From contig DASTIQ010000315.1 of the NCBI GenBank assembly GCA_035717485.1, positions 471-64,470 of the forward strand: DNA of 64,000 bases, written 5' to 3'. Below the pieces are notes generated by a model. That model worked only from the letters and a program-made list of their open reading frames with translations. It had not been told where the DNA came from and did no database searches. The position numbers were made by a program, and so were the translations under genes. The DNA is from Thermoanaerobaculia bacterium (lineage in GTDB: Bacteria > Acidobacteriota > Thermoanaerobaculia > UBA5066 > DATFVB01). How positions within the stretch are numbered: the stretch's first letter is position 1; each line of letters opens with the position of its first letter. This document shows, piece after piece, positions 15,499 through 37,557 of the stretch.

Positions 15499-16161
15499 AT
15501 GCCGTCACCCGTCCGCGAAGCGATCGATCTGCTTTCCAAGAGCGGCGAGGCCGCCTTCGCGATCGACGCGTCCGACCGGCTCGTCTACTGGAACAAGGGA
15601 TGCGAGGAGATCCTCGGCTTCGAGGCCCAGAAGGTCCTGGGAAAGCTCTGCTTCGAGGTCATGGGGGGACGGGACGAGCACGGAAATGTGTATTGTTTCA
15701 AGAACTGCCCCGTCGCCCATCAGGCGCGGCACAACGAGGACGATCCGGTCCAGCCCTTCGTGCTTTCCGTCAAGGACAAGAAGGGCGAGCAGCGGAAGCT
15801 GACCGTTTCGATGTTCGCGGTCCCGGCCGTTCGCCCCTCCCTGTCGGCCGTCGTGCACGTCATCCGGGAAACCGGCGCTCCGGCGTCTCCTCTCGAGAAG
15901 ACGCTCGCGAAGCAGGCCGCCGCGGCGCCCCCGACGCGCTGGCCCCTTCTCACGACCGAGGGACAGCCGGTCGAGCTCACGACGCGCGAAAAGGAGATCC
16001 TCCGCTGCCTGGCCGAGGGCTTCTCGACGTCGGCGATCGCGGAGAAGCTCTTCATCGCCCCGGTGACGGTGCGGAACCACGTCCAGAGCATCCTGCAGAA
16101 GCTCGACGTGCACACGAAGCTGGCCGCGGTCGTGTTCGCCTACCGCCATCAGTTGATTTAG
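15499..16161 (+). CDS. PAS-domain / LuxR-family HTH transcriptional regulator
   Basis: N-terminal PAS-like sensor region. C-terminal LuxR HTH (LTTREKEILRCLAEGFSTSAIAEKLFIAPVTVRNHVQSILQKL). Confidence 0.7.
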   Translation: MPSPVREAIDLLSKSGEAAFAIDASDRLVYWNKGCEEILGFEAQKVLGKLCFEVMGGRDEHGNVYCFKNCPVAHQARHNEDDPVQPFVLSVKDKKGEQRKLTVSMFAVPAVRPSLSAVVHVIRETGAPASPLEKTLAKQAAAAPPTRWPLLTTEGQPVELTTREKEILRCLAEGFSTSAIAEKLFIAPVTVRNHVQSILQKLDVHTKLAAVVFAYRHQLI

Positions 16162-16304
16162 CGGCGCGGCGATACGCCGCGTGATACGGGCCCGTGCGGC
16201 CCGGCGCCGAGTCGTCCGAGCCCGTCTTCCACGACGTCTCGCCGCGCCTCGAACTCGACCCAATCGGCAGGGGGAGCCGGGGTCCGCCGGTCTCCCCGAC
16301 GGCT

Positions 16305-16739
16305 TCAGCGAGCGCGGCGGAGTGCTTTCCTGGGAGCTCTACCGGTCCGTCGCCGCTTCGCCTTCGCGCCGAGCTCGCGGGAGACGAGATCGAGCAGGTC
16401 CGAGACGGTCAGGATGCCGACGAGCTTCCCGTCCGAGACGACCGGGAGCGCGCCGATCTTCCTCCGCCTCATCAGGTAGGCGGCGTCCTCGACCGGCGTC
16501 GCCGGCGCGACGACCGCGACGCCGCGGCTCATCACCTGGTCGATCGTCCGATCGATGCGGAGGTTGCCGACGAGGAGCCCCGCGATGTCGCGGTCCGAGA
16601 CGATCCCGACCACCCGCTCCCCCCGCACCACGACGAGGTGGCGCAGCCGCCGCGCGCGCATCCGTTTCAGGGCCTGCTCCGCGGATCCGTCCTCCCCGAT
16701 CGTCTCGACCTTCCGGTGCATCAGCTGTTCGACTCGCAC
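16305..16739 (-). CDS. CBS domain pair protein
   Basis: 144 aa with two CBS motifs. Confidence 0.6.
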   Translation of the reverse strand: MRVEQLMHRKVETIGEDGSAEQALKRMRARRLRHLVVVRGERVVGIVSDRDIAGLLVGNLRIDRTIDQVMSRGVAVVAPATPVEDAAYLMRRRKIGALPVVSDGKLVGILTVSDLLDLVSRELGAKAKRRRTGRAPRKALRRAR

Positions 16740-16859
16740 GGGCTCCCTCCCCCCTCCACTCTACCCTCCGCGGCCGCTCTTCGAGCGCCGAAATGATGCA
16801 TTTGGAGCAAGACCGGCTCCCGGCCGGGGGACATGATCGGATCGGCAAGGAGGGCGTGC

Positions 16860-17342
16860 ATGCGGGTTCGCGATCTGATGACCACCCACGTCTGGTCCTG
16901 TTCCGAGAACGCGACCGTCGCTTCGGCCGCCAATACGATGCTCGACCACAACTGCGGCTTCGTTCCCGTCGTGGGCAAGGACGGCGACGTCCTCGGCGTC
17001 GTGACCGACCGGGATCTATGCATGGCCCTCGTGCGGAACGACCGGCGCGCCGCCGAGATCCCCCTCGCCGAGGTCTGCTCGGGCCGGGTCGTCTCCTGCC
17101 GGCCCGACCAGGAGATCCACGACGTCCTCCAGATCATGGAGGGCGCGCGGGTCCACCGGCTGCCCGTCGTGGAGGACGGCCGGCTCAAAGGGATCATTTC
17201 GATGACGGACGTGCTCCGGCACGCCTCTCCCGTCCGGAGCGCCGACGGGGACTGTCTCACCTGCGCCGAGGCGGTGGGCGCGCTGAAGATGATCACCGCC
17301 GTCCGCCGGCCCCGGAAGAGCTGGGTCGCCGCGGCGGAATGA
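16860..17342 (+). CDS. CBS domain pair protein
   Basis: Start at MRVRDLMTTHVW, preceded by AAGGAGG. Two CBS motifs. Divergent from the other CBS gene. Confidence 0.6.
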   Translation: MRVRDLMTTHVWSCSENATVASAANTMLDHNCGFVPVVGKDGDVLGVVTDRDLCMALVRNDRRAAEIPLAEVCSGRVVSCRPDQEIHDVLQIMEGARVHRLPVVEDGRLKGIISMTDVLRHASPVRSADGDCLTCAEAVGALKMITAVRRPRKSWVAAAE

Positions 17343-17787: not shown

Positions 17788-18084
17788 ATGAAATCGGTTA
17801 CCCGTACCGGGCTCGTCATCGGCGGGCTCTACCTGGCGTCGATCGCTTCCCAGGGAATCGCGTTCGGCAAGGCGTCGTGGGTGAAGGGCGCCAAGGACCT
17901 CGGTATGCCCGCCCAGAACTGTCTCTACTGCCACACCGAGAAGATGCCCAAGAAGGACACCTTCAAGGTGGACGAGCTCAACGATCGCGGCAAGTGGCTC
18001 ATGAGCGAAAAGGACAAGAAGAAGGCTGCCGAGATCGACCTGGCGTGGCTCAAGGAATACCCGGGAGGCCCGGAACAGAAGTAG
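17788..18084 (+). CDS. Small periplasmic monohaem c-type cytochrome
   Basis: AGGAGGAG Shine-Dalgarno. Signal peptide. Single CLYCH haem-binding motif. 98 aa. Confidence 0.65.
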   Translation: MKSVTRTGLVIGGLYLASIASQGIAFGKASWVKGAKDLGMPAQNCLYCHTEKMPKKDTFKVDELNDRGKWLMSEKDKKKAAEIDLAWLKEYPGGPEQK

Positions 18085-18166
18085 TCGTCAGCTGACCACC
18101 GGGGCCGGACGGAGTCCGGCCCCGTTTTCCGTCCATCGGACGGACAAAAAGGCGCGCGGTGAGACC

Positions 18167-20329
18167 ATGAAGAGCTTCAGGATCGTTCTGATCGCGGTGT
18201 GCGCGGCGGCGGGCGTCGCGCTCGGGGCCGAAACGAAAGCCAAGGCGAAACCGCCCGCCGATGCCGATTGTCTCGGCTGCCACTCCGACGCGACGTTGAA
18301 ATCCGCGAAGGGCCGCTCCCTCTTCGTCGCCGCCGCGAAGCTCGCCCGGTCCGTTCACGGAGCCGCGGGTCTTTCCTGCGTGGACTGCCACGCCGGATTC
18401 GACCCCGGAGAGATTCCCCACAAGGCGAAGATCACCCCGGTCGCGTGCGTCGGATGCCACGACGACGTCGCCGCCAAGCACCCGTTCCACCGCGATCTCG
18501 CGGAAGCGAAGAAGGGCGGCGCCGCGCCCGCGGTCGACTGCCAGTCGTGCCACGGCGGACACGGCGTCGTTCCCGTCTCGTCGCGCGCGTTCCTGCTCAA
18601 GAGCGACCCGGCCGCGGGCTGCGGATCGTGCCACGACGACGTCGTCGCCGAATTCCGCTTCTCGGCGCACGGGCGCGCGCTCGCGCGCTCCGTCAAGGGA
18701 GCGCCGGACTGCCTCACGTGCCATCGCCAGGACATGATCGGCTCGATCGGCGTGCCGTATGCGACCCGCAAGATCGCGCAGGAGAAGATGTGCCTCTCCT
18801 GTCATCTCAAGAACCCCGCGATCCGCGCGATGATGCCGAGCGCCGGGTTCATCGAATCCTTCGAGACGAGCGTCCACGGACGCGCGCTCGCGCGCGGAAA
18901 CGGTGCGGCGCCGACCTGCATCGACTGTCACGGAACCCACGGCATGAGCAACCCCCTCTCGCCGGGCTCGAACGTCGGGAAGCTCGAGATTCCGCACCTC
19001 TGCGCGAAGTGCCACAAGACGGAAGCCGCCCAGTACGCCACGAGCGTTCACGGAACCGCGCTCGCTCGCGGGATGAAGGACGCCCCCGTCTGCACCGACT
19101 GCCACGGCGAGCACGCCGTGCTCCCGCGCCGTGATCCGAACTCCCCGATCGCCGCGGCGAACGTCTCGGCGCGCGTCTGCACGCCCTGCCACGGCTCGCT
19201 GCGGCTCGCGCAGAAATTCAACCTGCCCACCGACCGCTCCCGGAGCTACGCGGACAGCTTCCACGGCATGGATTCCCGCGGGGGGGTCGCCTCGGTCGCC
19301 AACTGCGCGAGCTGCCACGGCGCGCACGACATCCTTCCGTCTTCCGATCCGCGCTCGCGCGTCGCCAAGGCGAACCTCGCCTCGACCTGCGGCCAGAACG
19401 GGTGTCACCCGAAGGCGAACGACCGGTTCGCGCTCGGCCGCGTCCACGTCACCGGCACGAGGGACAAGGACCCGCTCCTCTTCGTGATCGCGACGATCTA
19501 CATCGTGCTCATCGCCGGCGTCATCGGCGGGATGCTCGCGCACAACGCGCTCGACTTCCTCCGGAAGCTCCGGCACCGATTCCGGATCCGGATGGGCAAG
19601 GACGTCGAAGCTCCCGCGGGGAACGGCGTCTACCTGCGAATGACGCTCTTCGAGCGGCTCCAGCACGGGGGCGTCGCCCTCCCGTTCATCCTGCTCGTCA
19701 TCACCGGCTTCATGCTCCACTACCCCGACGCCGCCTGGGTGCGGCTCATCCGGCGGATGAACCCGAGGGCGTTCGAGCTCCGGAGCGTCCTCCACCGCGC
19801 GGCGGGCGTCGTGATGACGGTGACGAGCCTCGTCCACGTCGCCTACATCGTCCTCTCCGCGCGCGGCCGCCAGCTCGTCGCGGATCTCTGGCTGCGCCCG
19901 AAGGACCTCACGGACGCCTGGAAGACCCTCAAGTACAACCTCGGTCTCTCGAAAGAGAAGCCGATGTACGGAAGGTTCTCGTACGCCGAAAAGGCGGAGT
20001 ACTGGGCGCTGGTCTGGGGCACGATCGTCATGACGGTCACCGGCGTCGTCATGTGGTTCGACAACACCTTCATCGGACTCCTGACGAAGCTCGGCTACGA
20101 CGTCTCCCGCACGATCCACTTCTACGAGGCGTGGCTCGCGTTCCTCGCGATCGTCGTGTGGCACCTGTATTTCGTGATCTTCAACCCGGACGAGTACCCG
20201 ATGAATCTCGCCTGGCTCACCGGAATGCTCTCCGAGAAGGAAATGGAAGAGGAACACCCGCTCGAGCTCGAGCGGCTTCGCCGTTCCGGACCCGAGCCCG
20301 GCGCCCCCGCACCGGCGCCCCCGGCATGA
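18167..20329 (+). CDS. Multihaem cytochrome c (12 CxxCH plus one CX4CH) fused to a C-terminal dihaem cytochrome b membrane domain (CbcL-like quinol oxidoreductase)
   Basis: Signal peptide. 12 CxxCH motifs plus CGQNGCH. The C-terminal 300 aa have 5 TM helices with conserved His pairs, like HydC/FdnI-type cytochrome b. Confidence 0.8.
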   Translation: MKSFRIVLIAVCAAAGVALGAETKAKAKPPADADCLGCHSDATLKSAKGRSLFVAAAKLARSVHGAAGLSCVDCHAGFDPGEIPHKAKITPVACVGCHDDVAAKHPFHRDLAEAKKGGAAPAVDCQSCHGGHGVVPVSSRAFLLKSDPAAGCGSCHDDVVAEFRFSAHGRALARSVKGAPDCLTCHRQDMIGSIGVPYATRKIAQEKMCLSCHLKNPAIRAMMPSAGFIESFETSVHGRALARGNGAAPTCIDCHGTHGMSNPLSPGSNVGKLEIPHLCAKCHKTEAAQYATSVHGTALARGMKDAPVCTDCHGEHAVLPRRDPNSPIAAANVSARVCTPCHGSLRLAQKFNLPTDRSRSYADSFHGMDSRGGVASVANCASCHGAHDILPSSDPRSRVAKANLASTCGQNGCHPKANDRFALGRVHVTGTRDKDPLLFVIATIYIVLIAGVIGGMLAHNALDFLRKLRHRFRIRMGKDVEAPAGNGVYLRMTLFERLQHGGVALPFILLVITGFMLHYPDAAWVRLIRRMNPRAFELRSVLHRAAGVVMTVTSLVHVAYIVLSARGRQLVADLWLRPKDLTDAWKTLKYNLGLSKEKPMYGRFSYAEKAEYWALVWGTIVMTVTGVVMWFDNTFIGLLTKLGYDVSRTIHFYEAWLAFLAIVVWHLYFVIFNPDEYPMNLAWLTGMLSEKEMEEEHPLELERLRRSGPEPGAPAPAPPA

Positions 20330-23106
20330 TCCGTCCGGCGAGAACGCTCGCGCTCCTGTTCGCGGTCCTGGCGCTCGCCCCCGCGGCCGGGGCCGCGAAC
20401 CCGGCCCCCTCGAAGGACGACTGCCTCGCGTGCCACGAACCGGGCGTCCGCGTCGGGCGGCGGAAAGCCGGCGAGGCCCCGCCGTTCAACGCGGCGGCCC
20501 TGAAATCCTCTCCCCACGCGGACCTCGACTGCGTTTCCTGCCATGCCGACATCAAGGAAGTCCCTCATCCGGACAAGCTCGCGCGCGTGGACTGCGGCTC
20601 CTGCCACTCGGACGAGGGAAAGCAGTATGCGGCGAGCGTGCACGGCCGGAAGAGCGCCGCCGGCGATCTCTACGCCCCGGGCTGCAAGAGCTGCCACGGC
20701 ACGCACGACGTTCTCCGTCCCGGAACGCCCGGTTCGCCGACCTCGACGATGCAGATCCCGCGCCTCTGCGGCGGCTGCCACCGCGAAGGGTCCGCCGTCA
20801 GCCTCACCCGGAAGATCCCGCAGACGAACATCCTCGGCAACTACATGGACAGCATCCACGGCGAAGGTCTCTTCAAGCGCGGGCTGATCGTCGCCGCCGT
20901 CTGCACGAGCTGTCACACGGCGCACTTCGTGCTCCCCCACAACGACCCCCGCTCCTCGATCGCCAAGGAGAACATCGCGAAGACCTGCACGAAGTGCCAC
21001 GCGCAGATCGAGATCGTCCACCGCAAGGTGATCCGGGGCGAGCTCTGGGAGAAGCAGCCGCACCTGATTCCCGCCTGCGTCGACTGCCACTCTCCGCACA
21101 AGATCCGGAAGGTCTTCTACTCGCAGGGAATGGCGGACCAGGACTGCCTGCGCTGCCACGGCGACCCGAACCTGAAGGGAACCCGGGGCGGCGAGACCGT
21201 CTCCATGTTCACGGACGCGAAGGAGCTCGCGCATTCCCGCCACGCGAAGATCGCCTGCGGGCAGTGCCACACCGGCGGCGACCCCTCGAAGACCCGCCCC
21301 TGCCTCACGATCGCGGCGCGCGTCGACTGCTCGATCTGCCACGCCGCCGTCGTCGACCAGTACAAGGAAAGCCGACACGGTCAGCTCTTCGCGCAGGGCA
21401 GCCCCGACGCGCCGTCGTGCCAGGACTGCCACAGTCCGCACGGGACGTTGTCCAAGACCGACCTGAATTCCCCGACGTTCTCGCGGAACGTCCCGGCGCT
21501 GTGCGCGCGCTGCCATCGCGCGGGCGAGAAGGCGGCCGTCCGATACCGGGGCGCCCAGAAGAACATCGTCGAGAACTATCTCGAGAGCATCCACGGCAAG
21601 GGCCTCATGGAGTCGGGGCTCACGGTCACCGCCAACTGCGCCGACTGCCACAGCGCGCACCGCGAGCTGCCGTCGGCCGACCCCCGGTCGACCGTGAATC
21701 GCGCCAACGTCGCCCTGACCTGCGCAAAGTGCCACCGCGGGATCTACGAGCTCTTCAACGCGAGCGTCCATTCGACGGCCGTGACCCGGACGAACAAGAC
21801 GCTTCCGGTCTGCAGCGACTGCCACTCGGCTCACAGCATCCAGCGGACGGACCTCTCGAACTTCCGCCTCCACATCATGGACCAGTGCGGCCGATGCCAC
21901 GAGAAGATCGCGGCGACGTACTTCGACACGTTCCACGGAAAGGTCTCGAAGCTCGGGTATCTCGCGACCGCCAAGTGCTACGACTGCCACGGGTCGCACG
22001 ACATCCTTCCCGTGACCGATCCCCGCTCGCGCCTCTCCCGCGCCAACATCGTCAAGACGTGCGGGAAGTGCCACAGCGGTTCGCACCGCCAGTTCGCCGG
22101 ATATCTCACGCACGCGACGCACCACGACCCGAAGCGCTACCCCTTCCTCTTCTACACGTTCTGGGGGATGACGTTCCTCCTCGTCGGAACGCTCACGTTC
22201 GCCGGCACCCACACCGCGCTCTGGCTCCGCCGCTCGCTCGCCGACGGAAAGGCCCCCGCCGCGGCCGAGGCCCAGGCCGACCGCGTCTACGTCCGCCGCT
22301 TCACGACGTTCCAGCGGAACCTGCACCTGATGGTGATCGGCAGTTTCCTCGGGCTCGCGGCGACCGGCATGACGCTGAAGTTCTCCTACGCGCCGTGGGC
22401 GCGCGTCCTCGCGCGGCTCTTCGGCGGATTCGTCGCGGCCGGCCTGATCCACCGCTTCTGCGCGGTCGTGACCTTCACCTATTTCGGGCTCCACCTCTGG
22501 GACCTCGTCCGCCAGAAGCGGAAGAGCGGGAAGAGCTGGATCCGGCTCGTCTTCGGTCCGGACAGCATGATGCTCAACCGCCGCGACTGGCGCGAGTTCG
22601 TCGGATCGATCAAGTGGTTCCTGAAGAAGGGGCCGCGGCCCCGCTACGGGCGCTGGACCTACTGGGAGAAGTTCGACTACTTCGCGGTGTTCTGGGGCGT
22701 GGCCGTGATCGGCATGACCGGCCTGATCCTCTGGTTCCCGACCGTCTTCACGCGAGTGCTGCCCGGGTGGATGGTGAACGTGGCGACGACGATCCACAGC
22801 GACGAGGCGCTGCTCGCCGTGTGCTTCATCTTCAGCATCCATTTCTTCAACACCCACTTCCGTCCGGAGAAGTTCCCGATCGACACCGTGATCTTCACGA
22901 CGGGAGTTCCGCTCGAGGAGCTCAAGCACGACCGGCCGCTCGAGTACCGGCAGCTTCGCGAGAGCGGAGAGCTCGAGCGCCTGAAGATGCCGGCGCCGAT
23001 CCCGCTGGCGAACCGGATGTGGCGCCGTTTCGGCTTCACCGCGCTCGCGATCGGGCTCGTGCTGATCGGGCTGATCCTGTATTCGATGCTCTTCCTCTAT
23101 CGGTGA
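20326..23106 (+). CDS. Second multihaem cytochrome c (19 CxxCH) fused to a dihaem cytochrome b membrane domain (CbcL-like paralogue)
   Basis: ATGA overlap with the previous gene. Signal peptide MIRPARTLALLFAVLALAPAAGA. 19 CxxCH motifs. C-terminal multi-TM domain with His ligands. The upstream part of ORF 19402 is an artefact. Confidence 0.8.
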   Translation: MIRPARTLALLFAVLALAPAAGAANPAPSKDDCLACHEPGVRVGRRKAGEAPPFNAAALKSSPHADLDCVSCHADIKEVPHPDKLARVDCGSCHSDEGKQYAASVHGRKSAAGDLYAPGCKSCHGTHDVLRPGTPGSPTSTMQIPRLCGGCHREGSAVSLTRKIPQTNILGNYMDSIHGEGLFKRGLIVAAVCTSCHTAHFVLPHNDPRSSIAKENIAKTCTKCHAQIEIVHRKVIRGELWEKQPHLIPACVDCHSPHKIRKVFYSQGMADQDCLRCHGDPNLKGTRGGETVSMFTDAKELAHSRHAKIACGQCHTGGDPSKTRPCLTIAARVDCSICHAAVVDQYKESRHGQLFAQGSPDAPSCQDCHSPHGTLSKTDLNSPTFSRNVPALCARCHRAGEKAAVRYRGAQKNIVENYLESIHGKGLMESGLTVTANCADCHSAHRELPSADPRSTVNRANVALTCAKCHRGIYELFNASVHSTAVTRTNKTLPVCSDCHSAHSIQRTDLSNFRLHIMDQCGRCHEKIAATYFDTFHGKVSKLGYLATAKCYDCHGSHDILPVTDPRSRLSRANIVKTCGKCHSGSHRQFAGYLTHATHHDPKRYPFLFYTFWGMTFLLVGTLTFAGTHTALWLRRSLADGKAPAAAEAQADRVYVRRFTTFQRNLHLMVIGSFLGLAATGMTLKFSYAPWARVLARLFGGFVAAGLIHRFCAVVTFTYFGLHLWDLVRQKRKSGKSWIRLVFGPDSMMLNRRDWREFVGSIKWFLKKGPRPRYGRWTYWEKFDYFAVFWGVAVIGMTGLILWFPTVFTRVLPGWMVNVATTIHSDEALLAVCFIFSIHFFNTHFRPEKFPIDTVIFTTGVPLEELKHDRPLEYRQLRESGELERLKMPAPIPLANRMWRRFGFTALAIGLVLIGLILYSMLFLYR

Positions 23107-27197: not shown

Positions 27198-27209
27198 GGA
27201 GCGACGGCG

Positions 27210-27509: not shown

Positions 27510-27511
27510 GG

Positions 27512-27703: not shown

Positions 27704-27795
27704 GGCAAGCCTCCTTCTGTCGGCCTGACGCGTTCACGATCGCACGGGCGCGCCTCGGAATCCATCCTCCAAACGCTTCAATCTATGATCGGAAG

Positions 27796-28692
27796 ATGAC
27801 GACGAAACCCGCCTGGCCGGAGCTCCCCCTCGACGAGTGGCGCGAAACGAACGAAACGCTCCATCGCTGGACGCAGATCGTCGGCAAGGTCGCCCTCGCG
27901 CTGACGCCGCGGGTGAACCACTGGTGGAACGTTTCTTTCGCGGTGACGGCGCGCGGCCTCGCGACCTCCCTCCTTCCGTTCGGGACCGGGGCGCTCGACA
28001 TGGAATTCGACTTCGTCGAGCACGTCCTGCGCCTGCGCACGACGGATGGGCGGACGGCGACGATCGCCCTCGCGCCGAAGAGCGTCGCGCGCATGCGCTC
28101 CGAGATCTTCGGCGAGCTCGAGGCGCTCGGCGTTCCCGCGCGGATCTGGAACGTGCCCGTCGAGATCGAGGACCCGATCCCGTTCGATCGGGACGAGACG
28201 CACCGCTCGTACGAACGCGAGCCGGTCGAACGGTTCTGGCGCATCCTCGCCGGGACTCACGCCGTGTTCACCGAGTTCCGAGCGGGGTTCCTGGGGAAGT
28301 GCAGCCCGGTCCAGTTCTTCTGGGGCACCTTCGATCTCGCCGTGACCCGCTTCTCCGGACGCGTCGCGCCGCCGCGGCCGGACGCCGACGCGATCACCCG
28401 GGAGGCGTACTCCCACGAGGTTTCGAGCGTCGGCTTCTGGCCGGGGGATTCCCGCCTGCCGCTCCCGGCCTTCTACAGCTACGCGGCTCCGGAGCCGCCG
28501 GGGTTCCGCGACTCCCGCGTCCGGCCGGACCCCGCCTACTACCATCCGCAGCTCGGCGGGTTCTACCTGCACTACGACGAAGTCCGCCGAAGCGGCGAAC
28601 CGGAGCGTCGGCTCCTCGATTTCTGCCGCGCGACGTACGAAGCGGCCGCCGACGCGGGAGCGTGGGACCGGGCGAACCTCGAAAGAAGATGA
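27796..28692 (+). CDS. DUF5996 family protein
   Basis: 298 aa. The N-terminal WPELPLDEWRETNETLHRWTQIVGKVALALTPRVNHWWN matches the conserved DUF5996 start. Confidence 0.55.
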   Translation: MTTKPAWPELPLDEWRETNETLHRWTQIVGKVALALTPRVNHWWNVSFAVTARGLATSLLPFGTGALDMEFDFVEHVLRLRTTDGRTATIALAPKSVARMRSEIFGELEALGVPARIWNVPVEIEDPIPFDRDETHRSYEREPVERFWRILAGTHAVFTEFRAGFLGKCSPVQFFWGTFDLAVTRFSGRVAPPRPDADAITREAYSHEVSSVGFWPGDSRLPLPAFYSYAAPEPPGFRDSRVRPDPAYYHPQLGGFYLHYDEVRRSGEPERRLLDFCRATYEAAADAGAWDRANLERR

Positions 28693-28807
28693 CCTCCGCG
28701 CGAGGGTTCGCCGCACTCGTTTCCCCGACGCTGCGCGAGCGCCGATAGGGGCGCTCCGGAATTCCGGCGGCCATCGCCCGCGGCATATCATCGGATCCGG
28801 AGGCACG

Positions 28808-30076: not shown

Positions 30077-30082
30077 CCGGCG

Positions 30083-31177
30083 CTATCCGGGGCCCGGCAC
30101 CCGCATCATCCGAAGCGGCCGGCGGCCCTCCCGGCGGAACTTCGGGAAGGCGAGGGCCCGGATCGCGCGACGGGAGTCGCGCGGGATCGTGAGGTACGCG
30201 GTTCCCCATTTGAGCGCCACCCAGAGCTCGTCGGGAAACGGGAGCTTCCCGTGGCCGGCCGGAAGAACGCGTTCGGTGAGCTCCCGCTCGAGCCGGCGCT
30301 TCTCGGAGGGCGGGAGCGCCTCACCGCGGGCGTTCGCCGCGAGCCGCTCCGCGACCGCCGCTTCGATCCTCGCCCGTTTCCGGCGGCCGGCCGTGAAGAC
30401 CGGCGGGTCGAGCGCTTCGTCCCAGCCGGGTTCGACGAAGCGGCACACGTCGACCTCGCGGCGCCGGACGAGGAGTCCCGTCGCCGCGCTCCGGCCGAAC
30501 ACCGGGTCGTTCCCCTCGAACCAGCTCGACGCGAGACGATAGCCGGCGGTCGTCGCTTCGGCATCCGCGCGGCTCACGACGCCCGTCGACCGCGCGCCCA
30601 TGAGACCGCGTTCGTCGGCCATCGCGTCCCGGAACGCGTCCTCGGCGTTTCGGATCGGCGACCCGCGTTGTCGCCCCGCGTTCCAGGCGAAGAAGCCGTT
30701 GGAGAAGAGATGGGTGAGCTTGTCGGTGCCGATCCGGACGCCGCAGAGTCGGAAGGTCGGCGCGAGAGACCGCATCGCGAGCCGGTCGTAGCGGCTCTCG
30801 TCGTAGATGCTCTCCCGGCCGAGGAGGACGATCCTCTCGAACCGCGGCCAACCCGGGCAGTCGTTCCGTTCGACGCAGGCTCCGAACGACGGAAGGAGGC
30901 GGTCGTCGAACTTGCGGAGGACCTCCGCGCGGTACTCCTGAACGAACGCGAGCTCGACCGTGACGTCGTCGTCGCGGAGGGGATCTCCCCCGGCTGCCAG
31001 GCGGGCGTTCGCGCGCGCGGCGATCCGGGCGAGCGCCGCGTTCACGATCCCGTTCAGCTTTCCCGCGGACTCCTCCAGAGGAACGTACCGGTACGTCAGG
31101 TTGTCGGTCTCGGCGGCCGCCGCGATTCCGGGCAGGAGCGCGACCAGGAGGGCCGCCGGGATGCCGACGGCGCGCCA
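30083..31177 (-). CDS. Hypothetical secreted protein (start uncertain; apparent 1-nt frameshift at the signal peptide)
   Basis: About 360-aa non-repetitive protein (AETDNLTYRYVPLEES...). The hydrophobic signal core VGIPAALLVALLPGIAAAAE has no in-frame start. ATG GCG CGC lies 1 nt out of frame. Confidence 0.45.
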   Translation of the reverse strand, partial: WRAVGIPAALLVALLPGIAAAAETDNLTYRYVPLEESAGKLNGIVNAALARIAARANARLAAGGDPLRDDDVTVELAFVQEYRAEVLRKFDDRLLPSFGACVERNDCPGWPRFERIVLLGRESIYDESRYDRLAMRSLAPTFRLCGVRIGTDKLTHLFSNGFFAWNAGRQRGSPIRNAEDAFRDAMADERGLMGARSTGVVSRADAEATTAGYRLASSWFEGNDPVFGRSAATGLLVRRREVDVCRFVEPGWDEALDPPVFTAGRRKRARIEAAVAERLAANARGEALPPSEKRRLERELTERVLPAGHGKLPFPDELWVALKWGTAYLTIPRDSRRAIRALAFPKFRREGRRPLRMMRVPGPG

Positions 31178-31347
31178 TGACCCATGGATCTTCCACCCCC
31201 GCCGATTCGACGTGGCCGCCTCCCGTCGCCGGCGCCCGCTCACGGTCTCCGACGTCGAAGTCGTGCGGCGTCGCGCTCGGGGTTTCGGGATTGCAGGAAC
31301 CGGGCCGGGTTCCCGGGAGCCACCGCCGGGTGCCGAGCTCCGGGAGT

Positions 31348-32208
31348 TCAGCGCCGCCCGAGCAGGACGACCCCGCCCATGCGCCTCATTTCCTCGCGCC
31401 GGGCGGGCGAGCTGATGCGGGAGAAGAGCCGGTAGAGCCAGGCCATCTTCGGTTTGCGGTCGAGCCGAATCCCCTCCTCGATCGTGGAGCGGAACTCGAG
31501 CTCGTTCCATCCGTGGGGCTCGAAGAACCTCGTCCCTTCGGCCGGCGCGAAACGGAACGGTGCGTTGGCGGCGCCGACGTGCCTGCCGACCCTCCGGTCG
31601 AGCATTTTCTTGAGGCGCGGAGAGGCGAGGTCGATGAGCCAGAGGCGCATCGCCGGCTCGGCATGGAGGTCGTCGGAGAGAGAGGCCACCTGCTCCGGCG
31701 CGAGGTACGCGAGGAGACCTTCGGTCACGACGAGGACCGCCGCGGCGCCGTCCGCCGCGCGGGAGAAGAGCCGGCGTCGGGCATCGGGGTCGGACAGGTC
31801 GGCCGCCACCCGCTCGAGCGCGCAGACCGGCTCCTCGCCGGCGAGTTTCTCCTCCTTGTAGGCGATCATCGGCGGAAGATCGGCCTCGATCCAGCGAAGG
31901 GACCTCGGCAGCGGCAGCCGGTACGGACGGGCGTCGAGGCCGGCGGCGAGGTTGAGGACGCAATCCACGCCCTCCCGGGCGATCGACCCGAGGATGATCT
32001 CGTCCATCACCGCGGTGCGCACGATCATCGGCCAGGCGAGATCGCCGACCTTCATCCGGCGGACGATCTCTTCCCCGCGATCCGCGACGAGCGTCTTCGC
32101 GAGCGGATCCCGGAAGATCGCGTCCGGGCGCGCGCTCTCCATCACGCGGTACTGGGCGACCCAGAGCGCGGTGTCGGAGACGTTCTTCAGCGTCGGCTCG
32201 TCGGGCAT
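31348..32208 (-). CDS. Class I SAM-dependent methyltransferase (Ppm1/LCMT-like O-methyltransferase family)
   Basis: 286 aa. Motif I VLNLAAGLDARPYRL. Resembles mycobacterial Omt-type / leucine carboxyl methyltransferase-like proteins. Confidence 0.65.
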   Translation of the reverse strand: MPDEPTLKNVSDTALWVAQYRVMESARPDAIFRDPLAKTLVADRGEEIVRRMKVGDLAWPMIVRTAVMDEIILGSIAREGVDCVLNLAAGLDARPYRLPLPRSLRWIEADLPPMIAYKEEKLAGEEPVCALERVAADLSDPDARRRLFSRAADGAAAVLVVTEGLLAYLAPEQVASLSDDLHAEPAMRLWLIDLASPRLKKMLDRRVGRHVGAANAPFRFAPAEGTRFFEPHGWNELEFRSTIEEGIRLDRKPKMAWLYRLFSRISSPARREEMRRMGGVVLLGRR

Positions 32209-32497
32209 GCGTGAATGATACGGGAGGCCACATGGGATTCACCGTAAGGTCCCGGATTCGTCACGAGTGAGAACCGCGTGCCGCCTGGAACGAGGACCCG
32301 TTCCGTCGAACGACCTCCACCCGATCGTGCCCGGGGGCTATCGCATCGCGGAGAGCTTTCGCCGAAGTAACCGGGGCGAAAGCTCCGCGATGCGGGAGCG
32401 GCGGCGAAGGGGGTGGCGGCGGCGCGGTCGAGTCGCTCGTTCGACGAGCCGTGCCGCCGTTACACGCTACCGGTCCCCGAGCCCGCTCCCGCGACGG

Positions 32498-34447
32498 TCA
32501 GTTGTGCCAGCGGATGTAGACGCCGTACCGATTCGCGTCGTAGTTCGCGAGCGATCCGGCGAGCGTCGCCTTTTCCTCGTACTTGTCCCGGTTCCACTCC
32601 CCGATGAGCGAAAAATTCTTCGCCACGTCGACGGCGGCGCGAACGGCCGCGCGATCGATCGTGAAGGGGAAAGAACCCTCGTTCTCGAAGCGGCCGACGG
32701 CGCCATCGATCGACACCGGCGCGAAGATCAGGGTCAGCCCGCCGTCGAACGACCGGCCGTTCTCGCGGTGGAACGACGTGTCGATCGAGAAGTCCTCGGG
32801 ATGCCGGAAGAGGATCCGGCTGTCGGATTCGTACTTCTCGGCGGAAACTCGCAGGCGCAGGAACTTCGCCGGAGAGCCCTCCGCCTCGCCGCCGTACTGG
32901 CGGATCCTGGCGTCGTATCCGATCCCCGTGCGGTCGTTCGAGGCATCGATCTGCTCGCCGGTCAGGCTCAGGCGGAAGACGTCCTTGAGCGCCCAGGCGG
33001 CGCGGAGACGGTATCGGTCACGGTCCAGGAAGTCGGTGCGGACGACGGGATCGTCGGCACGGTCGCGACGCCAGTCGGCGCCGAGAGTCAGGCCGCTCGC
33101 GGTGAATTTCGCCCCGAGATCGAATCCGTTGATCCGCCGGTCGAAGGAACCGTCCTGCGCGCCGGGAACGACGATCTCTTCCGGCCCTTCGACGACGGTC
33201 ACGCGCTGCTTGTTCTGGGAGCCGCCGGCGAAGACCGAGAGCCCTCCGAACGCCCGCGCATCGACCCGCGCGTCGAAGATCTCGTCCGTGCGCTCGACCG
33301 AGGTCTTCGCCTCGATCGTCTGGAGGAGATCGCGCGGATCGAGACCCGCAAACGTCACCGTCTGGAGATACAGATCCGAAATCAGCGCGAATCCGTCGAG
33401 CTCCTGGTGATTCTTCGACCAACCCGCGGAGAGGTCGATCCCGTCGGCGAGATTCGCCTCGACGCGGCCGCTCCCCCGCCATGCCGTGTTCTCGGCGCGC
33501 GAGGAGATCGTGTCGGTCAGGCCGGCGAAGATCCGGCTGATCCCGAAGGAGACGAGGTTCCCCGCGAAGTCCTCGCGCTCCGTGACGTCGGCTTCCGCGG
33601 CCGCGCGCACGTACGAGCCGATGAGCTTCACGCGACTGCCCAGGCGCGCCGCGACGGCGGCGTTCGTGATCGGCGTGTTCGCGTCGTTCTTGGTCGTGCG
33701 ATGGAAGTTGTCGAGCGACACGGGAACGCCCAGCACCGTTCCGGAGCCGTTGCCGGCCCCCGCTCCCGGCACGAGGTCCTGGGTCTCGACCTCGTGGAGC
33801 TTTCGCCAGCCCTGGGTGACCTGGCCGGTGACGGGACCCGCGTCGAATGCGGCGCCCCCGTAGATCTCCTGATCGTCCTCGTCGAGGTTCTGGGTGAGCC
33901 GGAACTCGTCGCCGCCGGCGGAGTACGTCGTCCGGCCGGGCCCCTCGTAACGGTTGTAGACGTAGCCGACGATCGGCGTGATCCAGTAGCCGGGAAGGAA
34001 GCGCAGCTCGACTCCCAGGATGTTCCGGGTGCGGTCGTACGTGTGCTCGCCGGGAGTGATCCCTTCGGAGATCAGCGGGTTGGCGAACGCCGGAAGCGCG
34101 GAGAACATCTCCGTCCGCCGGTAGTTGAGCCGCAGGTCGTACTTGCCGGCGAGGCCCGCCTGCAGGCGGAACGATCCCGCCGGTCCGGCGCCCAGGTCGT
34201 TCGCGTCGAGGCGGAACTGGTCGAAGAGTCCCGCGCCCGCGGGACCGCCGGCGGACAGGCTCAGGGCGCGGAGGAGGAAACCCTCGCGCTCGTTGATCTG
34301 GCTCCGGTACATGTCTTCGTTCCCGCTGACGTCGAGGAACCGGTATCCGAGCTCGACGTCCACCGGGACGGCGGGGGGATCGGCCGCCAGGACGGCGCTC
34401 GAAGCGCCGGCGGCGATCAGGGCGATGACGAGGCGGAGCTTCTTCAT
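32498..34447 (-). CDS. Outer-membrane beta-barrel porin, MtrB/PioB/MtoB-like
   Basis: Signal peptide MKKLRLVIALIAAGASSAVLAA. 649 aa with alternating beta-strand pattern, rich in Gly/Asp/Arg/aromatic residues. Immediately downstream of the decahaem gene with an 11-nt gap. Confidence 0.6.
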   Translation of the reverse strand: MKKLRLVIALIAAGASSAVLAADPPAVPVDVELGYRFLDVSGNEDMYRSQINEREGFLLRALSLSAGGPAGAGLFDQFRLDANDLGAGPAGSFRLQAGLAGKYDLRLNYRRTEMFSALPAFANPLISEGITPGEHTYDRTRNILGVELRFLPGYWITPIVGYVYNRYEGPGRTTYSAGGDEFRLTQNLDEDDQEIYGGAAFDAGPVTGQVTQGWRKLHEVETQDLVPGAGAGNGSGTVLGVPVSLDNFHRTTKNDANTPITNAAVAARLGSRVKLIGSYVRAAAEADVTEREDFAGNLVSFGISRIFAGLTDTISSRAENTAWRGSGRVEANLADGIDLSAGWSKNHQELDGFALISDLYLQTVTFAGLDPRDLLQTIEAKTSVERTDEIFDARVDARAFGGLSVFAGGSQNKQRVTVVEGPEEIVVPGAQDGSFDRRINGFDLGAKFTASGLTLGADWRRDRADDPVVRTDFLDRDRYRLRAAWALKDVFRLSLTGEQIDASNDRTGIGYDARIRQYGGEAEGSPAKFLRLRVSAEKYESDSRILFRHPEDFSIDTSFHRENGRSFDGGLTLIFAPVSIDGAVGRFENEGSFPFTIDRAAVRAAVDVAKNFSLIGEWNRDKYEEKATLAGSLANYDANRYGVYIRWHN

Positions 34448-34457
34448 CGCGTCCTCC

Positions 34458-35369
34458 CTACTTCAAAAGCGTCGGCGAACGGTTCGAACCGTGGATCGCC
34501 GTGTGACAGACCGTGCAGTTCTGGTATCGCGGCAGGAGGATGTTGTGAAAGGAAGGCGGCTGCGAGCCGAGGGTTCCCGCGGCGATCGGCGAGTGGCATT
34601 CGAGGCAGAGCTGGGAGACCTGGGCGCGCTTGAGCTGCTTCGGATTCGACGAGCCGTGCGCCTCGTGGCAGCTCAGGCAGTTGCCGGCGACCCCGGACAC
34701 GTGCTCGAAGACGAAGGGCCCCTTCTTCTCGGCGTGACAGGAGAGACACGGGAGCTCGTCGGCCCGGGTGAATCGCAGCGCGGAGTCGCGCGGGAGCCCG
34801 TGCGGATCGTGGCAGGAAGCGCAGTCCATCCCTGCCTGGAGCCGGTGCGCGAACGGCTTGTCGCGGAATCCCGCCGCCTTCCCGGGATGGCACGACTCGC
34901 AGAGCGCGACCGAATCCATCACGAGGAGATGCGGCCGCGCCGGGGCGGCGTGGATCGAGTGGCAGCTCAGGCAGTTGACCGTCGCCGAGTTGCCGTGGAC
35001 GCCGTTCCGGAACGAGGCGTGATCGGAAGGATGGTCGTGACAGGTCAGGCAGAACTCGGCGCCGGTCCGGCCGTGCAGCTTGCGCTCGACCGGCTTCTCC
35101 CCGGAGGACTCGACGTGCGCCGACGTGTCGCCGTGGCAGCTCGAGCAGACCGCATCCCCCGACACGCGAGCGCGACCCGCCAGGAATGGAATCCGTGCGT
35201 GGGGATTGCGGGAGAAGTCCTTCGCCTGATCGTGGCAGTCCGCGCACGCGGCGACGGCGCTCTTTTCGGAAGGGGGCGCCGCGGGCGGGGAAGCCTGCGC
35301 GGCGGCGAGGGCGGCCGCGCCGAAGATGACCGCGGCCATCGCCGCGCGAAGTCCGAGCGTGATCTTCAT
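34458..35369 (-). CDS. Periplasmic decahaem c-type cytochrome, MtrA/MtoA/PioA-like
   Basis: 303 aa, signal peptide, exactly 10 CxxCH motifs. Same size and haem density as MtrA. Confidence 0.8.
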   Translation of the reverse strand: MKITLGLRAAMAAVIFGAAALAAAQASPPAAPPSEKSAVAACADCHDQAKDFSRNPHARIPFLAGRARVSGDAVCSSCHGDTSAHVESSGEKPVERKLHGRTGAEFCLTCHDHPSDHASFRNGVHGNSATVNCLSCHSIHAAPARPHLLVMDSVALCESCHPGKAAGFRDKPFAHRLQAGMDCASCHDPHGLPRDSALRFTRADELPCLSCHAEKKGPFVFEHVSGVAGNCLSCHEAHGSSNPKQLKRAQVSQLCLECHSPIAAGTLGSQPPSFHNILLPRYQNCTVCHTAIHGSNRSPTLLK

Positions 35370-35469
35370 TTCGCCGCGCCTCCTCGCACTCCTCCGGCCC
35401 TGCGGTTCTCCGCCGGCCGGATTTCCCCCGGTCCGCCGTCAATCGGCGGACCGAAGGAACGGACCCGCG

Positions 35470-37557
35470 TCACCGCGCGTGCACCTTGTCGACCGAGAAG
35501 TCATCCTCAGGAGCGTGGCAGGCGGCGCAGGCTTCGCCGAACGGCGCCGTCATCACGTACGCATGCGCCGCGGCTTCCTGCGTGTCGTGGCAGCCGAGGC
35601 AGGCCGCCGCCGTCGTCTGTTGCGGCGTGTACCACTCCAGTGGTGGAGGAGGAGTCTGGACCGGGAGGTTCGTGGTCGGCAGCGGGAGCTCCTGGGAACC
35701 GTTGACATGGCATTTGGCGCAGTCCCGCAGATCTCCCGGGAACAGCACTTCCCGGAAATTTTTCTCGGAGACGATGAAATCGCGGGTCAGGTTTTCGCCG
35801 CGGTGAATCCGGTGGATGAAGCGCTGGAAGCTGATCGACTGCGGCACCGGATCCGCGCCGTCGTTCTTATTCGGATTGTGGCAGATCACGCATTCCTCCG
35901 GGGTCCGCCGCTGGGTGCCGTGGAACGCGATCTGGTCGTGGCAGACGTTGCAGTTCGCGAGCGACACGACGGTCCGACGCGGGACCGGCGCGGGGTCGGT
36001 CACGGCGAAATCCAGGATCGGGTTCAGCGCGGATTCGTCCTGCTCGATGTCCGCGCCGCCGTCCCCACGGTGGAGCGTGATCGACCGCCGGGTATCGACC
36101 GAAAGGCGCCAGGTTCCCGCCGCGTCGGCGGGGATCGCGTTCGTGAACGTGTAGGTCGCGTTCGTGCCGTCGAAGACGAGCGCCGCCGTTCCTGCGCCGT
36201 TCGGTTCCTGAATGTAGGTCCCGATGTCGGTCGTCGGGCCTCCGATGAGGAACCGGCAGCGTGCGAGCGTGTTCGGGTCGACCGGCGTGCCGTCGCCGTT
36301 GGTGACCTGGAACGTGACGACCGGCTTCTCGCCCGGAGCCGTGTGCGCGATCGACAGGATCTTCGCGTTCAGACCCGGGAGCTGGGTGGACTTCGTCGGA
36401 TTCGTGTGCGCGCCCAGGATCGACGCGTCGAACTCCGTGTCTCCCTGCGGAACGTGGCACGACGCGCAGGCGCCGTCATCGACGGCGATCCCGCCCGGAT
36501 GGTTCTCACCGGTCGCGAAATTCACGTTGTCGTGGCAGGAGCCGCACGCCGCCTGGCTCGGATACGTGTAGTAATTCGTCGCCTGAGTGGCCGGCGCCGC
36601 ATGACACTTCGTGCAATTCCGCACGTCCTGGGGGAACACGACGGTCGAGAAATCGGAGACGCCATGGCTGTTGATGATCTGGTACGGCGTGCCCGCCGCG
36701 ACGCTCGGCAGGTCTGCGCCCCGGTGGATCTTGTGGATCAGGACCTTGAAATCGACGGTGTTTCCGGTGTCGGGGTTGACGCTCTGCGGCGAATGGCACA
36801 GAACGCAGAGCTTCACGTCCTGGCGCGAGCCGCCGTGGGCGGAGAGCGGGTTGTGGCAGTTGTTGCAGGCGGCCGTGTCGATCATGTCCCACTTGTCGAC
36901 GACGGCCTGGGTGTCAGGACGGAAATCGAATTCGGCGTTGGCGTAGTAGTTCTTGTCGAAGACGTTGGGGTCGACCGCGATGAGGTTCCGGGTCGCGTAG
37001 ATGCCGAGCGTCGTGGTCTTTGTCCCGTCGTAGCTCGCCGGGAGAACCGTCTTGAACGTATAGGTCGAATGCCCGAGCGAAAGGTCGTTGAACCCCGCCA
37101 GTCCGGCGCCGTCGGCGCCCGCCTGCGTGACGGTCTGCTGAATCGGGCTCGTCGGAAGCGACGTGGCCTGCCGGGTCGTGTAGGAGGTGTACTGCCTCTG
37201 GACGGGGTCCCACCAGGCGAGCACGAAGCTCATGCTGAGCGCCCCCGGCGTGACCTTTCCAAGCCGGTCGAGCGGCTGGCCGGCATCGTCGTAGTACGTG
37301 ACGTCGGCGACCACCTTGCGGTCCGAACCGATCGTGACGCTGTTGATGGCGATGTGGAATCCGGGCCGGATGTACCCGAACTGGTCCGTCGTGAGGTAAT
37401 GCTCCTTCGCGCTGGCCGCGTACGCGCTCGGGCTCGTGAGAGTGACCGGCCGCGACGAGATCGCCGCCGGCGCCCCTCGATCCCCGACGCCGCCGAACGG
37501 GACGACGATTCCGGCAGCTGACATTCCCAAAACGACGAGGCGCCTGAGGATCTGCAT
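35470..37557 (-). CDS. Decahaem c-type cytochrome with MtrC/OmcA-like four-domain layout
   Basis: 695 aa, signal peptide, 10 CxxCH in two pentahaem blocks. The blocks are separated by non-haem domains of about 150-220 aa, like MtrC domains I-IV. Confidence 0.65.
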   Translation of the reverse strand: MQILRRLVVLGMSAAGIVVPFGGVGDRGAPAAISSRPVTLTSPSAYAASAKEHYLTTDQFGYIRPGFHIAINSVTIGSDRKVVADVTYYDDAGQPLDRLGKVTPGALSMSFVLAWWDPVQRQYTSYTTRQATSLPTSPIQQTVTQAGADGAGLAGFNDLSLGHSTYTFKTVLPASYDGTKTTTLGIYATRNLIAVDPNVFDKNYYANAEFDFRPDTQAVVDKWDMIDTAACNNCHNPLSAHGGSRQDVKLCVLCHSPQSVNPDTGNTVDFKVLIHKIHRGADLPSVAAGTPYQIINSHGVSDFSTVVFPQDVRNCTKCHAAPATQATNYYTYPSQAACGSCHDNVNFATGENHPGGIAVDDGACASCHVPQGDTEFDASILGAHTNPTKSTQLPGLNAKILSIAHTAPGEKPVVTFQVTNGDGTPVDPNTLARCRFLIGGPTTDIGTYIQEPNGAGTAALVFDGTNATYTFTNAIPADAAGTWRLSVDTRRSITLHRGDGGADIEQDESALNPILDFAVTDPAPVPRRTVVSLANCNVCHDQIAFHGTQRRTPEECVICHNPNKNDGADPVPQSISFQRFIHRIHRGENLTRDFIVSEKNFREVLFPGDLRDCAKCHVNGSQELPLPTTNLPVQTPPPPLEWYTPQQTTAAACLGCHDTQEAAAHAYVMTAPFGEACAACHAPEDDFSVDKVHAR

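Follow-up and report, generated by a model that had tools for sequence, protein, structure and literature searches.

An MtrCAB-like conduit encoded beside ImcH- and CbcL-type cytochromes: a likely extracellular electron transfer locus in Thermoanaerobaculia

Within a 64-kb stretch of the Thermoanaerobaculia contig DASTIQ010000315.1 (in the following, the window), positions 15.5-38.5 kb harbour a cluster of multihaem cytochrome genes that likely encodes a pathway for extracellular electron transfer (EET). That is, putative inner-membrane quinol oxidases of the ImcH and CbcL types are encoded next to an outer-membrane conduit resembling MtrCAB. Most likely, the organism uses such a route to respire insoluble oxides of Fe(III)/Mn(IV) or comparable acceptors outside the cell. 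The clustering of the cytochrome genes is a recurrent association and not a coincidence, and the pairing of ImcH/CbcL with MtrCAB is typical of Thermoanaerobaculia.

In the proposed route, menaquinol would be oxidised at the inner membrane by the ImcH-type protein (g8 in Table 1) and by the two CbcL-type proteins Cbc12 (g6, 12 haems) and Cbc19 (g7, 19 haems). The long multihaem domains, the small secreted monohaem protein (g5) or both would then carry the electrons across the periplasm to the decahaem MtrA-like protein (g15), which would be sheathed by a 26-strand MtrB-like barrel (g14), and the exit would be the surface decahaem MtrC-like protein (g16). In Geobacter, menaquinol is oxidised by ImcH for acceptors of high potential and by CbcL for those of low potential (10.1101/2023.05.03.539133, PMC9129911). 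By analogy, the three quinol oxidases encoded here probably serve acceptors of different redox potential.

Components of the electron transfer route

The window has a G+C content of about 69% and thus contains many long spurious open reading frames (ORFs). Genes were chosen by their third-position GC (GC3) and then scanned with Pfam and NCBIfam, which yields 17 genes between 15.5 and 38.5 kb. All 57 CxxCH motifs within the GC3-supported ORFs of the window (57/57) sit in six genes of the cluster, which is far from a chance scatter. An earlier sequence-only reading of the window had named two CbcL-like and one ImcH-like gene, a monohaem carrier, an MtrCAB-like conduit and a P-type ATPase, with a PAS-LuxR regulator, two CBS proteins and a helix-turn-helix (HTH) protein upstream as well as a membrane GGDEF protein divergent to the conduit. 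All of them were recovered in place by the GC3-guided gene calls together with the Pfam and NCBIfam scans. The proposed span of about 20 kb, on the other hand, has to be extended to 22 kb and includes 5.3 kb of unrelated genes that the reading did not mention.

The cytochrome genes form two runs with operon-like spacing (Table 1). The inner-membrane run is co-oriented on the + strand (HTH, monohaem, Cbc12, Cbc19, ImcH-type, P-type ATPase), and its successive gaps are 45 bp (HTH to monohaem), 82 bp, -4 bp (the start of Cbc19 overlaps the stop of Cbc12 in an ATGA), 73 bp and 34 bp (ImcH-type to ATPase). Within mtrCAB, which is located on the - strand, the gaps are 100 bp and 10 bp.

Table 1. Features of the cluster and its surroundings (window positions, if not stated otherwise), with gene labels and supporting evidence.
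Feature	Label	Position	Strand	Length	Evidence or remark
SulP sulfate permease gene		12610-14241			two frame changes
PAS-LuxR (GerE) transcription regulator		15499-16161	+	220 aa	Pfam GerE 1.5e-17, PAS 1.7e-5
CBS-pair protein		16305-16739	-	144 aa	Pfam CBS 1.1e-30, two copies
CBS-pair protein		16833-17342	+	169 aa	Pfam CBS 3.9e-31
Small HTH_17/MerR-like DNA-binding protein	g4	17446 or 17536 (alternative starts) to 17742	+		Pfam HTH_17 1.2e-11, MerR 1e-9
Monohaem c-type cytochrome	g5	17788-18084	+	98 aa	one CxxCH at residue 45
Terminator-like hairpin		18100-18124	+		between monohaem and Cbc12; 11-bp stem, 10 G-C pairs, then TTTTCC; pattern match
CbcL-type inner-membrane cytochrome Cbc12	g6	18167-20329	+	720 aa	12 CxxCH and one Cx4CH, signal peptide
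CbcL-type cytochrome Cbc19	g7	20326-23106	+	926 aa	19 CxxCH, membrane domain homologous to that of Cbc12
ImcH-type inner-membrane multihaem cytochrome	g8	23180-24622	+	480 aa	Pfam Cytochrom_NNT 6e-10, NCBIfam NrfH 1.7e-13
Type II/III P-type cation ATPase	g9	24657-27197	+	846 aa	Pfam E1-E2_ATPase, Cation_ATPase_N/C, Hydrolase
Filler region unrelated to electron transfer		27198-32497			Pfam, NCBIfam, repeat search
Direct repeat, two copies		27205-27333, 27381-27509		129 nt	98% identical
DUF5996		27796-28692	+		Pfam
Pyrophosphate-dependent phosphofructokinase (PFK)		28808-30076	+		NCBIfam NF041103, 619 bits
Hypothetical protein		30083-31243	-		homology to the L165 protein stops near 31168
LCM-type methyltransferase		31348-32208	-		Pfam/NCBIfam
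Outer-membrane beta-barrel	g14	32498-34447	-	649 aa	signal peptide; MtrB-like by predicted fold
Periplasmic decahaem cytochrome, MtrA/DmsE type	g15	34458-35369	-	303 aa	10 CxxCH; PDB MtrA match
Cell-surface decahaem cytochrome, OmcA/MtrC family	g16	35470-37557	-	695 aa	TIGR03507 432 bits (cutoff 209), residues 79-693
AT-rich inverted repeat		37600-37640			mtrC-GGDEF intergenic region
Membrane-anchored diguanylate cyclase (GGDEF)		37683-38498	+		Pfam GGDEF 4.5e-38; N-terminal hydrophobic segments
Split Cbc12-type genes in relatives		L002 18716-20859; L005 346-2432; L171 7928-9978			positions within the respective locus

With regard to the conduit, the sequence of the MtrC-like protein places it firmly in the OmcA/MtrC family. 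Beside TIGR03507, it matches Pfam MtrC-MtrF_II-IV (6e-52), PF22113 (twice) and the PDB sequence of MtrF (3PMQ, 1.8e-33), and its 10 CxxCH show a 5+5 arrangement. A lipobox cysteine was sought and not found, since the first cysteine is at residue 231; the lipobox is a feature of Shewanella MtrC and not part of the definition of the TIGR03507 hidden Markov model (HMM). The MtrA-like protein aligns with PDB MtrA (6r2q_A, 1.3e-30) over residues 49-298. It is also aligned in full length by TIGR03508 with 187.0 bits, i.e., about 5 bits under the cutoff of 192.2, and by these alignments appears clearly homologous to the MtrA/DmsE family.

The barrel is assigned by predicted fold and context. As a single sequence, it shows no match in Pfam, in NCBIfam (E ≤ 0.01) or among PDB sequences, and a profile search of 1.8 billion representatives retrieves 1046 relatives. 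The AlphaFold2 model computed from a 70-sequence alignment has a predicted local distance difference test score (pLDDT) of 79.8 and about 26 strands. When compared with the PDB via Foldseek, MtrB (6r2q_B) ranks first with an E-value of 8.8e-15 and a template modelling (TM) score of 0.66, followed by 22-strand TonB-dependent transporters with TM scores of at most 0.49. That is, the model depicts a 26-strand barrel big enough for MtrA, and its gene directly follows mtrA. Given the fold match and this fixed position, we regard the protein as a predicted sheath of the MtrB type, although by sequence it is not a member of PF11854 (MtrB_PioB).

The ImcH-type protein shows three N-terminal transmembrane helices (residues 22-40, 54-72 and 102-120), NapC/NirT homology and 6 haem motifs, which end at residues 142, 166, 215, 323, 440 and 460. 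For Geobacter GSU3259, helices are reported at 13-35, 45-67 and 100-122 and motif cysteines ending at 135, 159, 208, 314, 431, 451 and 489 (PMC6295460, Table S3). The resulting motif spacing is 24/49/108/117/20 here vs. 24/49/106/117/20/38 in GSU3259. The same table lists the former intervals for homologues with six haems from Geothrix, Anaeromyxobacter and Solibacteraceae, and the last three motif positions are those of Solibacteraceae SbA6. Furthermore, the profile of the protein family matches NrfH (2j7a) at 2.9e-6. The protein thus combines the features of the ImcH family, i.e., three transmembrane helices, NapC/NirT/NrfH-like first haems, a motif number within 5-9 and the family spacing. 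With its apo model as query, Foldseek returned no PDB entry below E = 1, which is expected for an apo multihaem model.

The first haem motif of this protein is a Cx3CH (C138-G-Q-S-C142-H143, positions 23591-23608) beside the predicted quinol site. It is invariant in the family alignment of 46 sequences, whereas all tabulated ImcH homologues show a CxxCH there.

Both CbcL-type proteins combine a multihaem part with a membrane domain. For Cbc12, the C-terminal dihaem cytochrome b domain is identified by Pfam Ni_hydr_CYTB (64 bits, cutoff 30, residues 491-673) and by a match to an FdnI-type gamma subunit of NCBIfam (2.4e-15). It shows 5-6 hydrophobic segments. The membrane domains of Cbc19 and Cbc12 share 30% identity (E 8e-29) and four histidines that align, while the Ni_hydr_CYTB score of Cbc19, 21.5 bits, is below the cutoff. 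Members of the CbcL/MtoC/MtrH family are 416-1034 aa long and carry 3-23 CxxCH as well as a HydC/FdnI-like dihaem cytochrome b of about six helices with conserved histidines (PMC6295460). Cbc12 and Cbc19 agree with this family in architecture, length and haem number, with a crude hydropathy scan giving 5 helices instead of 6. Not all relatives encode the Cbc12-type as a fusion. Some of them have two or three genes for its multihaem and cytochrome b parts instead (Table 1), like Geobacter CbcBA.

The small monohaem protein is probably periplasmic after signal-peptide cleavage, as judged from its sequence. It has no match in Pfam, NCBIfam or among PDB sequences, i.e., its family is unannotated. 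In the alignment of the family, the N-terminus is hydrophobic and variable up to an AxA-like site, after which a very basic mature part of about 70 residues follows. C45, H49, P54, several lysines and an Arg-Gly pair are invariant; there is no invariant Met or second His in the alignment as distal haem ligand, and the axial ligation of the haem may be unusual. Homologues often occur in 2-3 tandem copies past the barrel gene.

Conservation of the cluster and alternative readings

To compare the locus among relatives, we collected barrel homologues from metagenome-assembled genomes (MAGs) of Thermoanaerobaculia/Acidobacteriota. The scan with the barrel alignment yielded 79 loci using one genome per species, and the proteins of the window were mapped onto them by tblastn. 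The counts below cover features within 10 kb and are based on the 42 species-level loci that have 9 kb or more on either side. MtrC, MtrA and the barrel are encoded in that order in all of them (42/42). At least one copy of the small monohaem gene is found in 30/42 and two or three tandem copies in 16/42. ImcH-like genes occur in 25, Cbc12-like genes in 20 and Cbc19-like genes in 13 of the 42 loci; any of the three inner-membrane types is present in 27/42, and ImcH-like genes come together with a Cbc type in 23/42.

The most common layout is a single-strand MtrC-MtrA-barrel-mono(1-3)-Cbc12-(Cbc19)-ImcH cluster, with collinear examples in the loci L003, L004, L011, L034, L038, L039 and L063. 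In a second layout, a more distant ImcH/Cbc pair (about 40% identity) is located divergently upstream of mtrC. The closer relatives of the window differ in their interior. An inverted inner-membrane run that directly abuts mtrCAB without genes in between (...ImcH-ATPase, then barrel-MtrA-MtrC on the opposite strand) is found in L172 (ImcH-like 78% identical) and L002 (barrel 65%). L165 (ImcH-like 91%) shows the filler genes of the window plus two more genes and has no Cbc19, while L001 (barrel 83%) keeps the filler without Cbc12, Cbc19 and the ATPase. In L167/L169 (GCA_936417675.1), one contig carries both halves at a distance of 18 kb, and the genes in between differ from those of the window. 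Finally, no inner-membrane cytochrome is encoded closer than 10 kb to mtrCAB in L006/L168 (an 85% relative), and in L009 only the monohaem gene is kept.

The sequence-only reading had proposed one co-inherited module and held that unlinked clusters with unrelated intervening genes would speak against it. The module itself does recur, i.e., mtrCAB is complete throughout the survey with ImcH/CbcL-like genes near it in most loci, but the 22-kb block is not inherited as a whole. As to linkage, both situations exist among the relatives, i.e., abutting halves (L002, L172) as well as halves separated by other genes (L167/L169). A history that fits these layouts would start from a single operon mtrC-mtrA-barrel-mono-cbc-imcH as the ancestral form of the class. 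In the lineage of the window, the inner-membrane half would have been inverted relative to mtrCAB and would have gained a regulatory head (HTH/CBS/PAS-LuxR) and the P-type ATPase as its tail; the separation from mtrCAB by 5.3 kb of unrelated genes would have come later.

We also performed a reciprocal scan of metagenome contigs with the ImcH-like alignment, which gave 80 loci of 46-67% identity. For 16 of the 37 loci with 2.5 kb on both sides, a CbcL-like gene is directly adjacent. Flanks of 6 kb on either side are available for 17 loci; this MtrC, the barrel and the monohaem gene are missing from all of them, while 8/17 have an MtrA-like decahaem gene. In the MAG of L171, an ImcH-like gene lies beside a pair formed by MtrA and a true PF11854 MtrB_PioB, with Rieske/cytochrome b genes and without MtrC; elsewhere in this MAG, on a different contig, the neighbour of an ImcH-like gene is MtrC-like. 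Following these results, the ImcH/CbcL pair is a sub-module that combines with several kinds of outer-membrane conduits.

Several observations weigh against reading the region as one pathway for electron export. A first group concerns the linkage: 15/42 loci show mtrCAB without an inner-membrane cytochrome within 10 kb (including the 85% relative), and ImcH-like genes are common without this conduit such that the two halves can function apart. In addition, the hairpin past the monohaem gene, which is the strongest terminator-like one of the region, may split the + strand run into two transcripts; it could also provide for more of the small carrier than of the membrane cytochromes. A second group concerns the assignments. 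The CbcL type of Cbc12 and Cbc19 is suggested by architecture and published ranges of length and haem number, and the ImcH type of g8 by architecture and the published motif table. For the barrel, the 70-sequence profile does not find MtrB among the PDB sequences, and of ten remote relatives scanned, two show PF11854, and this only below the threshold. Finally, CbcL homologues (MtoC) are also known from Fe(II) oxidisers (PMC6295460), i.e., the parts list leaves the direction of electron flow unfixed.

The observations on linkage would fit two independent neighbours, i.e., an inner-membrane operon serving periplasmic or other sinks and an mtrCAB operon that is fed by other quinol oxidases. We consider this unlikely. 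Adjacency in 27/42 species-level loci, the same-strand operon form in many lineages, the abutting halves of L002 and L172 and the small monohaem gene, which travels with either half, all argue for a functional connection. They have to be balanced against the unrelated genes on both strands between the halves in the window, the 18-kb gap with different genes in L167/L169, the 15 loci without nearby inner-membrane genes and the 17/17 wide-flank metagenome loci in which ImcH-like and CbcL-like pairs come without this MtrC or barrel. The upstream regions add to the latter side: a search for an operator-like word shared by both clusters returned only GC-rich chance matches.

An even less likely explanation is inward flow, i.e., electrons passing from Fe(II), minerals or a cathode to the quinone pool as in MtoAB-MtoC-MtoD or PioAB. 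CbcL/MtoC/MtrH homologues and the small monohaem MtoD are indeed part of Fe(II)-oxidising clusters (PMC6295460, PMC8805035), and the MtrC-free arrangement of L171 described above (seen also in L005) has an ImcH-like gene beside MtrA and a true MtrB_PioB. However, an MtrC-family surface cytochrome is present and invariant in the loci surveyed here, outward transfer is so far the only direction reported for organisms with ImcH homologues (PMC6295460), and Thermoanaerobaculum aquaticum, a cultured member of the class, reduces Fe(III) and carries genes for MtrC and MtrA (PMC9671151). It is from these three observations that we infer the outward direction of the EET pathway.

Within this pathway, Cbc19 shows an unusual degree of conservation. 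Its orthologues are 78-86% identical in lineages (L002, L003, L011, L034, L038, L063) in which MtrC, MtrA and the barrel are only 43-66% identical. Recent horizontal spread was considered as a cause and rejected, since the four-fold synonymous sites of Cbc19 (0.47-0.49) are as saturated as those of its neighbours (0.39-0.62). The conservation thus reflects strong purifying selection rather than recent transfer. Despite this constraint, the gene is absent from the 91% (L165) and 83% (L001) relatives, and its order with respect to the ImcH-like gene is reversed from one lineage to another.

A more speculative possibility, to which we give limited weight, is that Thermoanaerobaculia possess a distinct, so far unrecognised type of EET, which would consist of an Mtr conduit with a barrel invisible to HMMs, ImcH and very long CbcL types. 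The strongly constrained 19-haem protein (about 80% identity vs. about 50% for its neighbours) could then span the periplasm as a fixed wire to MtrA, and the lysine-rich 70-residue monohaem protein, lacking a conserved Met/His distal ligand, would be a new kind of adaptor. If this were true, marker-based surveys, which need an MtrB hit, would consistently underestimate how much this class, abundant in soil and sediment, takes part in metal reduction.

Regulators, neighbouring genes and origin of the region

Among the regulatory genes upstream of the inner-membrane run, the HTH gene is the most consistent one, i.e., it forms the head of the module in both layouts. It precedes the monohaem gene in the window, L001, L002, L165, L167 and L172, and 7 collinear loci have it about 1 kb upstream of MtrC. 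The two CBS genes are kept beside LuxR and HTH in L001, L165 and L172. A pair of Cys-rich paralogues of about 154 and 199 aa (e.g., L038 5750-6794) is encoded between HTH and mtrC in 24 loci; no homologue of them was found in the window.

At the other end of the cluster, the GGDEF protein carries the GGDEF motif and an RxxD motif five residues upstream of it. Its gene is divergent from mtrC with an intergenic region of 125 bp. The same divergent arrangement is seen in L002 and L006/L168, while the gene is found at the opposite end of the module in L167. The intergenic region contains an AT-rich inverted repeat, TTTGATGAAAACGAATCAAA, which is conspicuous in a genome of 69% G+C and is a candidate operator or promoter element between mtrC and the GGDEF gene. 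A scan for sigma-70 promoters resulted in zero sites. In Geobacter, riboswitches for cyclic di-GMP and cyclic GMP-AMP control cytochrome genes; an Rfam scan of positions 15000-39500 gave no match at E ≤ 1.

The P-type ATPase passes the cutoff of the generic NCBIfam model alone. It adjoins the cytochromes in L002, L165, L167, L172, L005 and L171 and is, with 2/42 loci, a passenger restricted to the lineage of the window. A similar picture emerges for the regulators, which had been called dedicated in the sequence-only reading. This applies to a sub-clade, given that PAS-LuxR is found in 12/42, CBS in 11/42, HTH in 9/42 and GGDEF in 4/42 loci. Regulators, GGDEF protein and ATPase are thus tied to the cytochromes only in the sub-clade of the window, and the roles one may assign to them in electron transfer are conjecture.

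The two halves of the cluster are separated by the filler region, i.e., DUF5996, the phosphofructokinase, a hypothetical protein and the LCM-type methyltransferase (Table 1). It lies between both cytochrome clusters only in the window, L165 and L001 (DUF5996/PFK/LCM in 1/42 loci of the survey), is absent there in L002 and L172, and other genes are found instead in L167/L169. The 600-bp gap between the ATPase and DUF5996 holds two copies of a direct repeat with 176-nt spacing, each with a 31-nt imperfect hairpin, while L165 has a gene for a 488-aa hypothetical protein at this place. No further copies were found in the window. The repeat might be the scar of a deletion or duplication, or else a small element with a structure of its own. 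Upstream of the block, the SulP gene shows two frame changes (near 12660 and 13199) compared to the intact 562-aa orthologue of L165, to which it is 88-92% identical across three aligned pieces; it is either a pseudogene or affected by assembly indel errors.

The term island, as used in the sequence-only reading, does not hold in the sense of acquired DNA. A recent acquisition of the block in one piece would be compatible with the movement of mtrCAB clusters and their passenger genes between lineages (PMC8805035) and with the differing content of close relatives. Yet the composition is native: GC is 0.66-0.72 throughout the window, mean GC3 is 0.885 in the block vs. 0.872 outside, and in codon usage, the long genes of the block deviate less from the window mean than the flanking genes do. 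No tRNA or integrase was found at the block borders, with the tRNAs of the window located only at 55.6 and 56.5 kb. Moreover, the window and its close relatives share their housekeeping flanks (Fpg-TauE-SulP-Usp and M64-OGDH-DUF885, with peptidase M64 and 2-oxoglutarate dehydrogenase), and every gene of the module shows saturated synonymous sites when lineages are compared. Composition, borders and flanks thus give no sign of a recent acquisition, and the block is not present or absent as a unit. We therefore rejected an acquired genomic island, which we regard as highly improbable. Instead, the shared flanks and the piecemeal content among close relatives reveal an old and native locus with its interior in flux.

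Comparison with known systems

EET has been worked out in Shewanella (CymA and MtrCAB) and in Geobacter (ImcH/CbcL and Pcc/Ext), which are usually treated as separate toolkits. The cluster studied here joins a Shewanella-type exit with a Geobacter-type entry, and this pairing recurs across an Acidobacteriota class that is widespread in soil and sediment metagenomes. Since standard MtrB models do not recognise the barrel, these candidate metal reducers would be overlooked by any pipeline that requires mtrB. Of possible value to specialists are the class-wide combination of Mtr with ImcH/CbcL, the barrel invisible to MtrB models, the new family of small cytochromes and the constrained 19-haem protein. 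Furthermore, close relatives with or without Cbc19, or with or without both CbcL types, form a natural deletion series for the contributions of the quinol oxidases. A survey from 2018 found no mtrAB/mtoAB adjoining imcH (PMC6295460). No paper joining Thermoanaerobacul* with ImcH or CbcL was among the best-ranked literature matches, with the literature covered incompletely.

Compared to Shewanella MtrCAB (6R2Q; MtrF 3PMQ), the order mtrC-mtrA-barrel is the same, both decahaem proteins are homologous to MtrA and MtrC, respectively, and the barrel has about 650 aa, with its model superposing best on MtrB. In contrast to Shewanella, the barrel is missed by PF11854, NCBIfam and the PDB-sequence profile, and the MtrC-like protein has no lipobox cysteine. 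Furthermore, CymA, FccA or CctA are not encoded, whereas ImcH/CbcL-type partners are found beside the conduit.

With Geobacter sulfurreducens, the cluster shares the three transmembrane helices and the haem-motif spacing of ImcH (GSU3259) as well as the fusion of a periplasmic multihaem domain with a dihaem cytochrome b as in CbcL (GSU0274). The proteins differ in their haem numbers, i.e., g8 has 6 motifs instead of the 7 of GSU3259, with the first one being a Cx3CH, while Cbc12 has 12-13 and Cbc19 has 19 haems compared to 9 in GSU0274. Moreover, imcH and cbcL of Geobacter are not located next to outer-membrane conduits, which are of the Pcc/Ext and not of the Mtr kind.

Clusters of Rhodoferax ferrireducens (cymA, mtrH) and Mto clusters (mtoA, mtoB, mtoC, mtoD) likewise place a CbcL-family gene and a small periplasmic cytochrome by an MtrAB-type conduit, and the modularity of such clusters in terms of passenger genes has been described (PMC8805035, PMC6295460). 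Unlike the cluster presented here, they use CymA and no ImcH, and the small carrier encoded in the window is unrelated to annotated families.

Within the same phylum, the Group 5 mtrCAB clusters (Acidobacteriia/Bryobacterales) of Baker et al. 2022 are similar in that mtrC is not duplicated. They encode a periplasmic tetrahaem protein after mtrB, whereas the Thermoanaerobaculia have monohaem genes together with the ImcH and CbcL types; for the acidobacterial (Bryobacterales) clusters, no inner-membrane quinone oxidoreductase is reported nearby (Baker et al. 2022, PMC8805035).

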